25,250 bases of DNA, from NCBI GenBank assembly GCA_964654915.1, contig CAZZKZ010000166.1, forward strand, positions 1 through 25,250. Direction: 5' to 3'. How positions within the stretch are numbered: position 1 is the first letter of the stretch; each line of letters begins with the position of its first letter. Shown piece by piece: positions 7,468 to 14,498 of the stretch. A program made the translations under genes and the position numbers. The DNA comes from Candidatus Hadarchaeota archaeon. Lineage in GTDB: Archaea > Hadarchaeota > Hadarchaeia > Hadarchaeales > Hadarchaeaceae. Below the pieces are notes generated by a model, which saw only the letters and a program-made list of their open reading frames with translations, ran no database searches and was not told the DNA's origin.

Positions 7468-8580
7468 GTGGGTGGTTGGCTGGGCGGCAACACGTTTGGT
7501 AAGATTTTCAGGGTGACGACCTGGGGGGAGAGCCACGGCAGGGCGGTCGGGGTCGTGGTTGATGGGGTGCCAGCGGGCCTCCCGCTCTCGGAGGAGGAAG
7601 TGCAGAGGGAGCTTGACCGGAGGCGCCCCGGCGTATCGCAGGTGGTCAGCCCCAGGAGGGAGAGGGACAGGGTTGAGATCCTCTCAGGGGTCTTCCAGGG
7701 TAGGACGACAGGAACCCCGATCTCGATGCTGGTCTGGAATGAGGATGTCGACTCCCGCCCGTACGAGGAGATAAGGATGAAGCCCAGGCCCGGGCACGCC
7801 GATCTGACCTACTGGCTAAAGTTCAGGCATGTGGACTACAGGGGCGGCGGGAGGGCCTCCGCAAGGGAAACTGTCGGGAGGGTGGCGGCCGGGGCCGTTG
7901 CTAAGAAGCTTCTGGCGACAAAGAATGTCGAGATCCTTGGGCACACGATCGAGGCCGCCGGCGTCTCGGTGAGGGGAAGACCGTCGATAGAGGAGATAAG
8001 GAAAAATGCGGAGGCGAACTCGATGAGGTGCGCGGACCCGGAGGTGGCCGAGAGGATGGTTGAGGCCGTGCTGGAGGCAGCAGCCAGGGGGGACAGCACG
8101 GGCGGAATCGTCGAGATAATCGCCCTCAACGTCCCGCCCGGCCTCGGCGAGCCGGTCTTCGACAAGCTGGACGCCGAGATCGCCCACGCAATGATGTCGA
8201 TAGGGGCCGTGAAGGCCGTGGAAATAGGGGAGGGAAAGGACTTCGCCAGAATGCTGGGCTCCGAGGCAAATGACCCGATAACGGTGAGGGACGGGAAGAT
8301 AGTCACGGCGACGAACAAGGCGGGCGGGATCCTAGGCGGAATATCAACCGGAATGCCGATAGTGGTGAGGCTGACCGTGAAGCCCCCGGCCTCGATTTCC
8401 CAGCCCCAGCGCACGGTGGACCTCGAGAAGATGGAGGAAACGGAGATAAAGCTGAGCGGGAGGTTTGACCCCAACCTCTGCCCGAGGGTGATTCCCGTGG
8501 CGGAGGCGATGATGGCGATAGTCCTGGCCGACCACATGCTGAGGTCGGGGGAGATAAATCCGAGCAGGCTGACAGCATGA
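7468..8580 (+). CDS. aroC: Chorismate synthase
   Basis: [45 protein letters not shown] and RFDP..PR..P..EAM motifs; GTG start at 7468 (CTG at 7480 is an alternative). Confidence 0.97.
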
Positions 8581-9455
8581 GCACGCTATCAGGAGTCGGA
8601 TTCGCCTGCGGGTCAGCCACGATCGTGAACGCGATGAGCACGGGTAAGGGGGCGGCCTTCGGGGTGGATCTCTGGCTGGAGGCCAGGGTCGAACTCTCGG
8701 AGAGATTCCGCGGCATAAGGGGGAGGACGGTCGGAATGAGAGAGTCGCCGAAGCTCGTTGAGACCTGCGTCAGGATGGTTCTGGAGAGGTTTGGCGCTCC
8801 GGAGCTCGGGGCGAGGATTCTCACGTATTCAGACATACCGGTGGCGGTGGGCCTGTCGAGCAGTAGCGCGGCGGCCAACGCGGCGACGGCGGCGGCCCTG
8901 ATGGCTCTCGGCAGAAGGCCGAGGCCCGAGGAGGTGCTTGAGATAGGCGTGAAGGCGGCAATGGAGGCCGGCGTGACGCTGACGGGCGCATTCGACGATG
9001 CGGCCGCTTCCCTGCTCGCCTGCGGGGTCGTGACCGACAACAGGAAGATGAAGATTCTCAGAAGGTTCGATGTGGATCCCTCGCTCAGGGTTGCGATATT
9101 CATCCCGCGGGGCGGGAAGCTGTACACGAAGTCCCTGCGGGGTGAGGATTTTTCCCAGATAGCAGGCGGAATCGAGGAGGTTCACAGGATGGCTTTGAGG
9201 GGTGATGTCTGGACCGCCATGACGCTGAACGGGATACTCTACGCCTCCGTCCTCAAGCACGACCTGGCACCGACCTTCATCGCCCTTTCCTCCGGATCGA
9301 TCGCCGCGGGTGTAACGGGGAAGGGCCCGGCCACGGTTGCCATTGGCTCTCCGGAGGCCATCTCCGCGACGGTTAAGGGCTGGAGGAGGCTCGACGGCAG
9401 AATAATTCTGACCTCCCCAGCGAAGAGGTGGGCGCTGGATGCTTTCGGAGATTGA
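8577..9455 (+). CDS. aroK: Archaeal shikimate kinase (GHMP family)
   Basis: [20 protein letters not shown] motif [34 protein letters not shown]; ATGA overlap with aroC. Confidence 0.93.
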
Positions 9456-10224
9456 GGCTGTCAGGAAGAAGATCGACGAGACAGACGGGCAGATCCTGGA
9501 GCTGGTGAAGCGCAGGCTGGACCTGGTCAGGGAGATAGCGGAGATCAAGCGCAGGAAGAACCTGCCGCTGACCGATACCGCCAGGGAAATGGAGATAGTG
9601 AGGAGAGCGAAGGAGACCGCCAGGAGGCTCGGGATAGATCCGGCATTTGCCGAGAGCCTGATGTGGCTGTTGATCTCCCACAGCTGGGGGAAGGAGAGGG
9701 AGGAGATGGAGCCGCCGGAGCTGCTGCGGAGGCTCGAGGAGAAATTCAGGGAATACCCTGCCCAGCTCAAGGTTGCCAAGCTCATGCTGCGATACGGGCT
9801 GAGGGTGAACGAGAAGGGTGAAATCTGCTGCGGCTCAATGAGGATACCCGCGGTGCAGATAGGGAAGGAGGCGGGAGTCGACAGGCGGGCGGTTGAGCAG
9901 ACGGCCTCCAGAATACTCAGGGATGAGGAGCTGAGGCTGATCTTCTCCGAGCTCGAGCCGGTCGCGCACCTGCGCGGGGCCGCGAAGGCCCTGGGGATGG
10001 GAATAATCGAGATAGTGCCGGAGGACGCGAGCAGGCCCGGCATAATCAAAGATGTGGCCGAGAAAATCTCAAAGTTCGGCGTGAGCATAAGGCAGGCCAT
10101 AGCCGACGATCCCAAGCTGACCCCCCAGCCGAAGCTCACGATAATAACGGACAGGCCGCTGAGCGGCGAGGTTCTCGAGGCCATCAGGCAAATCTCTTAT
10201 ATAAAAAGCGTCGTCCTCTATTGA
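9439..10224 (+). CDS. AroQ chorismate mutase fused to a COG2150-like HTH+ACT amino-acid-metabolism regulator
   Basis: aa 1-88 carry AroQ residues R9, R26, K37, D46, R49, E50, S82, E86. aa 90-261 (KFREYPAQLKVAKLMLRYGLRV..GVDRRAV..PGII..IS.FGVSIRQAIADDP..LTIITD) resemble the archaeal ACT-domain regulator family. Confidence 0.85.
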   Translation: MLSEIEAVRKKIDETDGQILELVKRRLDLVREIAEIKRRKNLPLTDTAREMEIVRRAKETARRLGIDPAFAESLMWLLISHSWGKEREEMEPPELLRRLEEKFREYPAQLKVAKLMLRYGLRVNEKGEICCGSMRIPAVQIGKEAGVDRRAVEQTASRILRDEELRLIFSELEPVAHLRGAAKALGMGIIEIVPEDASRPGIIKDVAEKISKFGVSIRQAIADDPKLTPQPKLTIITDRPLSGEVLEAIRQISYIKSVVLY

Positions 10225-10233
10225 GGGTCAAGC

Positions 10234-10953
10234 TTGAGGCTGAGGTTCGGGGACGTGGAAAGGGAGGCCGCCGTGAGGAAAGCCTCCGACATGGCGGATG
10301 TCATAGCCGACAAGGAGTGGCTGAAGGCGAACATGGACGCCGAGCTTTACTACATGTTCAGGGACCTGTGGAGGGCGGAGGACAGGGAAACCATACTCCA
10401 GAACAGGCTCAGGTACGACATAACAATCATCCCTCCGAGGAGGATAGGCATGGAGTTCGTGAAGACGCAGGGGCACTACCATCCCGAGTGTTGCCCCGGC
10501 CTGACCTACCCGGAGATATACGAGGTCCAGGAGGGCAGGGCGCACTACCTGCTGCAGAGGAAGGAGGGAGGCAGGATAGTCGATGTGGTTCTGGTGGAGG
10601 CGGAGGCGGGCGACAAGGTCATCATCCCGCCCAACTACGGTCACGTCACGATAAACCCGTCGGAGGAAGCGCTCAGGATGGCCAACTGGGTGAGCAGCGC
10701 CTTCACCTCCCTTTACCAGGAGTTCAACAGCATGGGCGGGGCGGCGTACTTCGAGCTGGTCGACGGGAGATTCGTGAGGAACCCGAGATACGGGGAGGTT
10801 CCGGAGCTGAGGAGGGTGGAGCCGGCCGAGGTCCCCGAGTTCGGGATAGTCCACGGGAGGGACATGTACGAGCTGATAAAGAACCCCGAGAGCCTTGACT
10901 TCCTGAACAATCCCGGCAGGTACGTGAGGATTTTTGAGAGATGCCTGAGGTGA
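10234..10953 (+). CDS. Cupin-type glucose-6-phosphate isomerase family protein
   Basis: RYDITIIPP, KTQGHYHP, YPEIYEV.EG.A.YLLQ and IPPNYGHVTIN (metal-binding His/His/Glu/His pattern of archaeal cupin GPI); TTG start. Confidence 0.85.
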   Translation: MRLRFGDVEREAAVRKASDMADVIADKEWLKANMDAELYYMFRDLWRAEDRETILQNRLRYDITIIPPRRIGMEFVKTQGHYHPECCPGLTYPEIYEVQEGRAHYLLQRKEGGRIVDVVLVEAEAGDKVIIPPNYGHVTINPSEEALRMANWVSSAFTSLYQEFNSMGGAAYFELVDGRFVRNPRYGEVPELRRVEPAEVPEFGIVHGRDMYELIKNPESLDFLNNPGRYVRIFERCLR

Positions 10954-12325: not shown

Positions 12326-12823
12326 GTGGCCGTGCTCTCCGGTCACCTCCTTTCATCACCCGATGAGTTGGTCACCGCGGTCTCCGGCGGCCAGAGAAGA
12401 GCGACCGTGCAGGCCTTCGACGCGGATTCGATAGCCGGCGCGGAGCACCTCCTCCACTCGGTCACCCTGGCGATCTCGGGCTGGGAGGCCGGCAGGCGGT
12501 TTACGAGGAGGTTCGAGCTGGAGCTCCTCTGCTATGCGGCGGCCGACCACCAGATTTCGGAGGCGATCAAGAAGGTCGGAGTTGGAAGGAGGACCTCCAA
12601 GGTGGTTCTCGTGTCTCTGGCCGGAAAGGGCGAGGAGGCCGCCGGGGCGCTGCGCGGGCTCGCTGAGAGGATCAGGGTGAGGCCGGATCCGGGAGTCCTG
12701 GAGGTTAATCCGGAGAAGAAGAGGAGGCTGAGGAGAATCTTCCGCATATCCAAGAGGGAGCTGGAGGCGGCCGGGCTGGAGGATCTCATCCTCGAGAGAA
12801 TCGCGTCACTTTCTCTTCTTTAG
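12326..12823 (+). CDS. cgi121: KEOPS complex subunit Cgi121
   Basis: VQAFDADSIAGAEHLLHS, ELELLCYAAADHQISEAIKKVG, LILERIA. GTG 12326 is inferred as the start; the ORF track gives ATG 12275. Confidence 0.88.
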   Translation: MAVLSGHLLSSPDELVTAVSGGQRRATVQAFDADSIAGAEHLLHSVTLAISGWEAGRRFTRRFELELLCYAAADHQISEAIKKVGVGRRTSKVVLVSLAGKGEEAAGALRGLAERIRVRPDPGVLEVNPEKKRRLRRIFRISKRELEAAGLEDLILERIASLSLL

Positions 12824-13108
12824 AATCTCCTCGAAAGTTTCATCCTCGTCCACGTCAACTATCTTCACGCACACCGGCATTATCGGAGTATCCGAGAATT
12901 TTATCTCCCCATCATCGTCTATTGCCGTGTACCTCGCCATGACCGGCTCATCGCTCCGGATGGCGAGGCATATCACTTCATGATCGATGGGAGCGTAGAT
13001 GTAGTAATAGTGCTTGTTCTCCTTTTCGATATGGAAAATCCACCCGAACCCGCGGCCTATGTTCACGACATCCTCAAGATTTTTGCACCATATCACTCGC
13101 ATGGCCAC
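12806..13108 (-). CDS. Hypothetical protein, ~100 aa
   Basis: Protein-like composition, overlaps the upstream PhoU/TrkA-C gene by 35 nt, and fills an otherwise non-coding gap; GTG 13108 or ATG 13102. Confidence 0.75.
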   Translation of the reverse strand: MAMRVIWCKNLEDVVNIGRGFGWIFHIEKENKHYYYIYAPIDHEVICLAIRSDEPVMARYTAIDDDGEIKFSDTPIMPVCVKIVDVDEDETFEEILKKRK

Positions 13109-14404: not shown

Positions 14405-14479
14405 GGGCCCGTGGCGCAGTCTGGCTAGCGCACCGGCCTTTTAAGCCGGGAGTCGCGGGTTCGAATCCCGCCGGGCCCG
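14405..14479 (+). tRNA. tRNA-Lys(UUU), intronless, CCA not encoded
   Basis: Acceptor GGGCCCG/CGGGCCC, D stem GCGC/GCGC, anticodon stem CCGGC/GCCGG with loop CT-TTT-AA (anticodon 14440-14442), T arm GCGGG-TTCGAAT-CCCGC, discriminator G. Confidence 0.97.
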
Positions 14480-14498
14480 CTGCGGGAAGGGGAGAGGG

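Follow-up and report, generated by a model that had tools for sequence, protein, structure and literature searches.

The window analysed here is a 25,250-nt stretch of DNA from a Candidatus Hadarchaeota archaeon (contig CAZZKZ010000166.1). It originates from hot-spring metagenomes, and its gene content is archaeal (RNA polymerase subunits B, A' and A'', aIF2-beta, Cgi121, Nre and an archaeal shikimate kinase). At the end of an aroC-aroK cluster, the window contains an open reading frame (ORF) in which a complete AroQ chorismate mutase (CM) is joined to a regulator of the TrpY family. A first-pass annotation of the sequence had described this ORF as a single fusion of AroQ with a module containing a helix-turn-helix (HTH) and an ACT fold, and we found that sequence profiles, an AlphaFold2 (AF2) model and homologues all agree with that description. 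The ORF and its parts are as follows.

9439..10224, + strand: fusion ORF, 261 aa plus stop, ATG start; AroQ chorismate mutase plus TrpY-family regulator
9425..9430, + strand: GAGGTG, a Shine-Dalgarno-like motif read from the sequence, 8 nt 5' of the ATG and within the 3' end of aroK
9439..9708, + strand: AroQ (CM_2) chorismate mutase domain, aa 1-90; three long helices; profiles above cut-offs
9709..9732, + strand: fusion junction, aa 91-98 (MEPPELLR); free of indels in a 35-sequence alignment
9718..9990, + strand: N-terminal helical, HTH-containing region of TrpY, aa 94-184; inside the NF053754 match and seen in the AF2 model
9850..9921, + strand: putative HTH, aa 138-161 (AVQIGKEAGVDRRAVEQTASRILR); AF2 helices 138-145 and 149-161
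9997..10221, + strand: C-terminal ACT domain, aa 187-261; putative amino-acid (Trp) binding module, from AF2 and Foldseek

The GAGGTG motif at 9425-9430 supports the ATG at 9439 as the start of the fusion. Similarly, the predicted N-terminus lines up with those of the homologues in an alignment of 35 fusion proteins (45-79% identity), to which all statements on residue conservation below refer.

The two halves of the fusion protein

Both halves score above the cut-offs of family profiles. In the N-terminal half, aa 8-82 match Pfam CM_2 with 72.7 bits (cut-off 27; E 3e-20), and the equivalog-domain model TIGR01791, CM_archaeal, reaches 70.4 bits against a cut-off of 66.95. The C-terminal half matches the NCBIfam model NF053754, TrpY_fam, at aa 98-258 over profile positions 3-163 of 163, with 194.2 bits against a cut-off of 180. 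All 35 aligned homologues match both TrpY_fam and CM_archaeal. The first-pass annotation had regarded the C-terminal module as an uncharacterised COG2150-type protein and had seen in the fusion a new link between COG2150 and aromatic amino-acid metabolism. Neither point holds: the NF053754 match places the module in the TrpY family, whose founding member is a known Trp-dependent repressor, and the link to aromatic amino-acid metabolism is already established through TrpY (PMC6737238). By profile, the window protein belongs to this family, but it is not a stand-alone protein of ~166 aa that starts with Met-Trp; it is fused and carries Leu-Leu at the relic position described below. Since its C-terminal half lacks the stand-alone, Met-Trp-starting character of canonical TrpY, it is best named a TrpY-family domain.

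In the AroQ half, residues R9, R26, K37, D46, R49 and E50 are invariant, and at column 86 nearly all homologues carry E or Q, while P0120 has V. The numbering differs from that of E. coli CM by a constant offset of 2, as read from the match to 1ecm (query 5-82 to chain 7-84), and we take these seven positions to be the E. coli active-site residues R11', R28, K39, D48, R51, E52 and Q88. A PDB sequence search with the whole fusion protein found matches to the AroQ part alone, and no solved TrpY-family structure was found. The top matches were the AroQ mutases 1ybz, 2gtv and 1ecm; synthases of 3-deoxy-D-arabinoheptulosonate 7-phosphate (DAHP) that are fused to AroQ (5j6f, 3nvt, 2d8d and 5gmu) were also among them. 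Judged by family and residues, the AroQ half is most likely the chorismate mutase of this archaeon, which would convert chorismate to prephenate at the Phe/Tyr branch.

In the putative HTH of the regulator half, D148, R149 and R150 are invariant and P137, V139, Q140, E144, A145, G146 and V147 are kept in at least 90% of the homologues; the segment PAVQI..EAGVDRR as a whole is mostly invariant or nearly so. Further towards the C-terminus, the glycine of the ACT beta1-alpha1 loop (G201) is invariant, and R218-Q219, D223-D224-P225 and P231-K232 are invariant or nearly so.

A structural model, which the first-pass annotation had suggested as a check on the architecture, is in line with it. The AF2 model, built on the 35 homologues (pLDDT 84.8, pTM 0.57), shows an AroQ part of three long helices (2-40, 47-64 and 68-90; pLDDT mostly 83-94), a helical region at 94-184, and a beta-alpha-beta-beta-alpha-beta ACT fold at 189-260. 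Only a 3-residue break separates the third mutase helix (68-90) from the first TrpY helix (94-102). Because the pTM is 0.57, the placing of the domains relative to one another is uncertain. When the last part of the model was compared with the PDB by Foldseek, ACT domains were matched at a probability of 1.0 (3k5p, 1y7p, 3ibw, 2zho and 1psd), over ~78 residues at ~3 Å rmsd. The HTH-containing region modelled by itself reached a pLDDT of 87.4, and nearly all of its weak Foldseek matches (E >= 0.7) belong to DNA-binding domains of the HTH type (sigma region 4, CAP, TrpR, MarR and Lrp).

Authenticity, distribution and origin of the fusion

The fusion is genuine and not an assembly artefact. Four runs from hot springs or sediment (X1, X2, X4 and X5) yielded Logan contigs that cover 9300-9848 without differences or indels; X1/X2 and X4/X5 gave identical contig sets, and these runs thus represent at least two independent assemblies. 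The junction is intact, with no stop codon between the domains, in the independent contigs and in the relatives. A protein database search returned 454 matches, stand-alone relatives included, and about 115 of the best 120 of these 454 are proteins of 260-263 aa with a query coverage of 97-100% and identities of 45-96%. The corresponding metagenome search returned 414 stretches, again with stand-alone relatives included. The first-pass annotation had argued against an indel from the lack of stop codons near the junction in either alternative frame. This is correct for frame +2, which has no stops between 9453 and 9819, but not for frame +1, which has stops at 9659 and 9671 (30-60 nt 5' of the junction) and at 9800. 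The inaccuracy is immaterial, because the conservation of the fusion settles the question.

We found that the named matches in the protein database are almost all from metagenome-assembled genomes of Hadarchaeota, Hadesarchaea or Hadarchaeales. Homologues are called 'chorismate mutase', 'hypothetical protein' or, at JGI, 'predicted regulator of amino acid metabolism with ACT domain/chorismate mutase'. The window protein itself is present in NCBI, JGI and ENA, and its cluster is called 'chorismate mutase' by JGI. The suggestion that the architecture had not been described therefore stands for the literature searched but not for the databases, where the JGI name covers both domains. Nor is the architecture rare or without annotation: the fusion is the standard form in Hadarchaeota and is annotated automatically, which is the outcome that the first-pass annotation had itself listed as counting against its proposal.

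We also searched with the TrpY module alone, exhaustively, by HMMER against 1.84 billion cluster representatives (50% identity), and examined the best 150 of the 268 relatives found. Among these best 150, a single representative (P0014, 263 aa) is fused to CM; the others, save fragments and one protein described below (P0201), are stand-alone proteins of ~166 aa. With one fused representative among the best 150 of 268, the fused proteins make up one clade when clustered at 50% identity. A scan of GTDB with patterns from close relatives for fusions outside Hadarchaeota gave one Hadarchaeota locus and an unrelated Bacteroides mutase. Together, these results suggest that the fusion is universal-looking in Hadarchaeota and absent elsewhere among the best 150 of 268 representatives.

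The junction itself points to how the fusion may have come about. Stand-alone TrpY homologues begin with Met-Trp, their genes with ATGTGG, and most fusions carry G-x-x-G-M-W at the junction (the part kept being G-M/V-W), with W96 conserved in at least 90% of the homologues. The junction Met-Trp thus looks like the fossil start of trpY. We propose that the fusion arose in an ancestor of Hadarchaeota in which aroQ and trpY would have been adjacent within an aroA-aroC-aroK-aroQ-trpY-trpEGDCFBA supraoperon; the aroQ stop codon would have been lost, and the Met-Trp start of TrpY would have turned into the internal G-M-W motif. In more distant members of the window's wider clade (L006, P0003 and P0004), W96 is kept.

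Separate translation of the TrpY half from the relic Met-Trp was considered and rejected as a general mechanism. Across 43 loci, the residue preceding W96 is M, V, I, L, F or T, and the codon before W is often one that cannot initiate (GTC, CTC, TTC or ATA); in the window it is CTG.

The protein set apart above, P0201 (285 aa, on a 2.3-kb ENA contig), combines an N-terminus resembling DeoC and class-I aldolases with a TrpY module truncated by its first ~45 residues. Its N-terminus resembles the archaeal synthase of 2-amino-3,7-dideoxy-D-threo-hept-6-ulosonate (ADH) of the alternative entry to the shikimate pathway. P0201 is either a second kind of fusion between an aro enzyme and TrpY or the product of a chimeric or frameshifted contig.

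Gene neighbourhood and a candidate operator at trpE

Three genes flank the fusion on the same strand.

7468..8580, + strand: aroC, chorismate synthase, first gene of the triad (Pfam Chorismate_synt, E 5e-139; TIGR00033)
8577..9455, + strand: aroK, archaeal GHMP-type shikimate kinase (TIGR01920, 237.7 bits against a cut-off of 126.85)
10234..10953, + strand: cupin-type glucose-6-phosphate isomerase (PGI), 9 nt 3' of the fusion stop (Pfam GPI, E 1e-47)

The aroK gene shares 4 nt with aroC and 17 nt with the fusion ORF. No RNA runs are listed for window positions 7468-10953. The PGI gene is apparently co-transcribed with aroC, aroK and the fusion, and it is unusual for an aro cluster to end in a glycolytic isomerase.

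We surveyed the neighbourhoods of 80 metagenome loci and a few others by mapping reference aro and trp proteins onto them. Wherever the upstream flank of a fusion locus is long enough, the aroC-aroK-fusion triad is present. At many loci aroA lies upstream, and genes for a DeoC-type ADH synthase, a 3-dehydroquinate (DHQ) synthase II and a DHQ dehydratase are found divergently. At 24 loci, a complete trp operon (trpE, usually trpG, trpD, trpC, trpF, trpB and trpA) lies directly 3' of the fusion on the same strand. At L029, the trp genes lie ~3 kb away on the opposite strand. In the window and at L003, L006, L007, L008 and L040, the cupin PGI gene lies downstream of the fusion without trp genes and fills the position held by trpE in other Hadarchaeota. 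At L014, L020, L025 and L046, among others, the fusion is followed directly by convergent DUF424, aIF2-beta and RPA-like genes, which also come after the PGI gene in the window.

The short spacer in front of trpE contains a conserved element at all trp-linked loci. Its 25-locus consensus is ttG.ACA-aTTt-TGTACA-atAAAG-ctTTAAATA-gtACA: two TGTACA-type boxes lie just 5' of the B recognition element (BRE) and TATA box, and a third half-box directly 3' of the TATA box. A 2005 study by Xie and Reeve is said to have given TGTACA as the consensus of the TRP box, the binding site of TrpY, and to have ascribed repression to the blocking of TATA-binding protein (TBP). The element is seen, for example, at L005 6784-6840, and we expressed it as the composite motif T[GT]NACA-N4-TGTACA-N5-6-TTTAAATA-GTACA. 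TGTACA boxes are present in the 24 trp-linked relatives and at two truncated loci (L026 and L079). With a simplified TGTAC-TATA pattern, the trpE element was the sole site at 23 loci, L026 and L079 included. Three loci, L004, L016 and L061, are trp-linked yet fall outside the simplified pattern, the element being visible there by eye, and one unrelated match was found at L050.

At the divergent aroA/DeoC promoters of the relatives, TGTAC and GTACA pentamers are scattered, and no clustered or TATA-associated boxes were found. We dropped the idea that the fusion controls the aro operon because these aroA promoters show no clear TRP boxes. Judged from the relatives, the likely regulatory target is the trp operon rather than the aro genes.

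Two observations concern other promoters. At L075, L080, L081, L083 and L085, TGTAC/GTACA half-boxes (TTGTATGTACC...GAGTACAAG) are present ~60-20 nt upstream of the stand-alone trpY genes, which would be compatible with autoregulation through TRP-box-like sites outside Hadarchaeota. Directly 5' of the aroA start, within the last ~30 nt, L014, L019, L023, L048, L059, L005 and L011 share a conserved GAGATTGTGTA[GA]CGGGA(A/G)C. This stretch is kept though the intergenic sequence is otherwise divergent, and it may be a leader, a ribosome-binding site or a regulatory element of the aro operon.

Stand-alone TrpY homologues also occur in other settings. At L067 (5983-9159) and L069 (5392-8517), two of the closest stand-alone homologues, 48-50% identical to the window module, are followed by two luciferase-like (F420-type) oxidoreductase genes; at L067, these are followed by MqnA (VitK2_biosynth), and an FTR gene lies nearby. 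The MqnA pathway starts from chorismate, and TrpY-family genes at these loci may adjoin other chorismate-consuming pathways.

Elsewhere in the window, a 32-nt direct repeat (CGTTTCAGGGAACGCATAGCTGGATAGGA[T/C]AA) is present in two copies 72 nt apart at 43-146, upstream of carA; the copies resemble the final units of a CRISPR array that the edge of the window truncates, and TRF found nothing there. A 100-aa ORF without a Pfam match lies at 12806-13108 (- strand) between the Cgi121 and TrkA_C/PhoU genes, and L003 has a 100-aa gene at the matching place, likewise without a Pfam match. A tRNA-Lys(TTT) gene at 14405-14480 (+ strand) lies in the spacer between the TrkA_C/PhoU gene and an rpoH-rpoB-rpoA'-rpoA''-nusA-S12-S7-EF1alpha cluster; in L003, an RNA_pol_Rpb5_C (rpoH) gene is found just 5' of rpoB.

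Proposed function and comparison with known systems

We consider it probable, from domains, residues and the neighbourhoods of relatives, that the fusion encodes a bifunctional protein that would combine a chorismate mutase at the branch point with a TrpY-type trp repressor in one polypeptide. The obligate AroQ homodimer would join two TrpY modules, each with HTH and ACT, as a fixed dimer. With Trp in the ACT domains, the HTH regions would bind the TGTACA TRP boxes that bracket or overlap the BRE/TATA of trpE, and box binding would block TBP and transcription factor B, as described for TrpY of Methanothermobacter thermautotrophicus. The same protein would push chorismate towards Phe and Tyr through prephenate and shut the competing anthranilate branch. 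The analysis shows which domains are present, that the fusion and its catalytic, HTH and ACT residues are conserved, the synteny, and the operator motif in relatives; from these we infer mutase activity, binding of Trp and of DNA, repression and how the fusion came about step by step. For the window protein in particular, the conserved HTH alone points to a DNA target. The first-pass annotation had likewise proposed an enzyme-regulator hybrid that might control aro transcription. A hybrid for aromatic amino-acid control fits the evidence, but its target is likely the trp operon and not the aro genes.

Several findings weigh against this reading. The Pfam ACT match at aa 199-252 is weak (18.8 bits, E 0.0014, under the gathering score), and the HTH region alone had no significant match in the PDB by Foldseek (best E 0.7). 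There are no trp genes within the 25-kb window. The window also contains no composite TGTAC-TATA match and none to TTTAAATAGTACAA with up to 3 mismatches; TGTACA occurs in it twice, no more often than by chance and both times within genes. W96, otherwise nearly invariant, is replaced by L in the lineage closest to the window (the window, L003 and L007). Finally, the TrpY homologue TK1227 of Thermococcus kodakarensis does not regulate trp (PMC6737238).

The strongest alternative extends the bifunctional reading: the two halves may be allosterically coupled, as in trigger enzymes. We regard this as possible but doubtful. Coupling could take two forms. Yeast and plant chorismate mutases are activated by Trp, and Trp on the ACT domain might similarly alter mutase activity, for instance by activation. 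In Bacillus-type DAHP synthases, the AroQ domain is a ligand sensor that transmits inhibition by prephenate; in the same manner, chorismate or prephenate in the mutase site might alter DNA binding. The junction has a fixed length without indels in all 35 homologues, with conserved G84, W96, F103, P107 and A108, which speaks for a defined interface and against a loose linker. Coupling is further favoured by the shortness of the break between the last mutase helix and the first TrpY helix in the AF2 model and by the precedents for a regulatory role of the AroQ domain itself, since AroQ-fused DAHP synthases are among the PDB matches. On the other hand, the arrangement of the domains is uncertain at the pTM obtained, and a simple fusion of operon neighbours, through co-expression and stabilisation of the dimer in a thermophile, would explain the data without allostery. 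The corresponding picture of an archaeal trigger enzyme at the chorismate branch point, in which Trp would close the trpE promoter and raise mutase activity while chorismate or prephenate could tune operator binding, is similarly tentative. If it were true, a single protein would set the split of flux between Trp and Phe/Tyr both enzymatically and transcriptionally; the TrpY family would gain its first member fused to an enzyme, and the protein would be among very few archaeal hybrids of enzyme and transcription factor known. Allosteric coupling of the halves would be a compact form of combined enzymatic and transcriptional flux control in Archaea.

We think it unlikely that the role has changed in the window's lineage, with the TrpY module controlling other genes or serving as an ACT appendage of the mutase with a vestigial HTH. 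This idea draws on the findings listed above for the window: PGI in place of trp genes there and at the five loci that share this arrangement, no TRP box found in its 25 kb, and the loss of W96. The precedent of TK1227 keeps it alive, and some stand-alone homologues are likewise found in non-trp contexts (L067 and L069). However, the window HTH retains all of the invariant or nearly invariant residues of its trp-linked homologues (P137, V139, Q140, E144-G146, V147, D148, R149 and R150), which argues against a vestigial DNA-binding domain, and the protein scores above the TrpY_fam cut-off across the whole profile. In addition, separation of a regulator from its operon is common and implies no loss of function, as the distant trp genes of L029 illustrate.

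That the AroQ half is catalytically inactive, and serves the regulator only as a dimerisation scaffold or ligand sensor, appears very improbable. The intertwined AroQ homodimer and the palindromic boxes of TrpY-type regulators speak for the idea, and nothing specific does so beyond this; against it stand the invariance of the six core catalytic residues, the E or Q in nearly all homologues at the column aligned with Q88, a score above the cut-off of an equivalog-domain model, and a position directly after aroC and aroK among genes of the pathway. The notion that adjacent genes were joined by a sequencing or assembly frameshift or a missed stop codon, which the frame +1 stops had made conceivable beforehand, has nothing in its favour after the checks and can be given practically no credence: junction-identical contigs from four runs, the indel-free alignment, more than 100 full-length homologues in the same frame down to 45% identity, and the lack of a usable internal start, with CTG before position 96 in the window, all oppose it.

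The bifunctional reading draws on well-known families for both halves and thus implies no new biochemistry; it is their combination that is without mention in the searchable literature. The fusion is found throughout the lineage of Hadarchaeota, an archaeal phylum that is uncultured, and serves as a 'Rosetta stone' by tying the TrpY family physically to the chorismate branch point. It predicts a regulator and a concrete operator, the TGTACA boxes around the trpE BRE/TATA, for an uncultivated group, and may help explain functional differences between TrpY homologues of different lineages, such as TK1227 in Thermococcus. The database names 'chorismate mutase' and 'hypothetical protein' conceal the regulator half.

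TrpY itself is among the closest known systems. In M. thermautotrophicus, it attaches to TRP boxes within the overlapping promoters of trpY and trpE and, when Trp is present, represses trpEGCFBAD (PMC6737238). Similarly, the C-terminal 165 aa of the window protein match the TrpY profile (COG2150/NF053754) end to end, with the same HTH and ACT layout, and related Hadarchaeota have TGTACA boxes that overlap the trpE BRE/TATA beside the gene, matching TRP-box logic. The M. thermautotrophicus protein, however, is a stand-alone protein of ~166 aa with a Met-Trp start, encoded divergently from trpE, whereas the Hadarchaeota module follows a chorismate mutase and is either co-directional upstream of trpE or, in the window, unlinked from trp; the window protein also lacks the conserved Trp at the former position 2.

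The AroQ half has the predicted three-helix fold and the core catalytic residues of stand-alone AroQ enzymes (MjCM of M. jannaschii and 1ybz of P. furiosus) and of E. coli CM (1ecm). Those enzymes are ~90-100 aa long, either alone or at the N-terminus of P- and T-proteins, whereas the window protein adds a C-terminal transcription regulator. The P-protein (AroQ-prephenate dehydratase-ACT) and the Archaeoglobus AroQ-PheA-TyrA protein also carry AroQ and an ACT sensor in one polypeptide, but their ACT domain regulates the fused enzyme and they have no DNA-binding domain. The AroQ-fused DAHP synthases of Bacillus, Geobacillus and Listeria likewise join AroQ to a functionally different partner from the same pathway; that partner is an enzyme and not a transcription factor, and ligand sensing by AroQ is a property of theirs. 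A survey of archaeal fusions lists CM-PheA and CM-PheA-TyrA, and the accessible parts of its text and supplements contain no CM-TrpY fusion (PMC11237513). In the literature searched, we found no paper that pairs TrpY with a chorismate mutase fusion.

Trigger enzymes such as BirA, PutA and NadR offer a functional parallel, in that one protein catalyses a step and binds the operator of a related pathway. Their folds and pathways are unrelated to those of the fusion, and the coupling of catalysis to DNA binding is demonstrated there but hypothetical here.

A last parallel lies in gene order. In B. subtilis, aroH, which encodes the mutase, lies immediately 5' of trpE in an aro-trp supraoperon, an arrangement paralleled by the Hadarchaeota order aroA-aroC-aroK-CM/TrpY-trpE. 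In T. kodakarensis, the regulator Tar (TK0271) is encoded in an aro operon and acts on the promoters of trp, tyr-phe and aro (PMC6737238). As an activator with the site TGGACA-N8-TGTCCA, Tar is unrelated, B. subtilis uses TRAP and RNA attenuation, and neither system has a fused protein.

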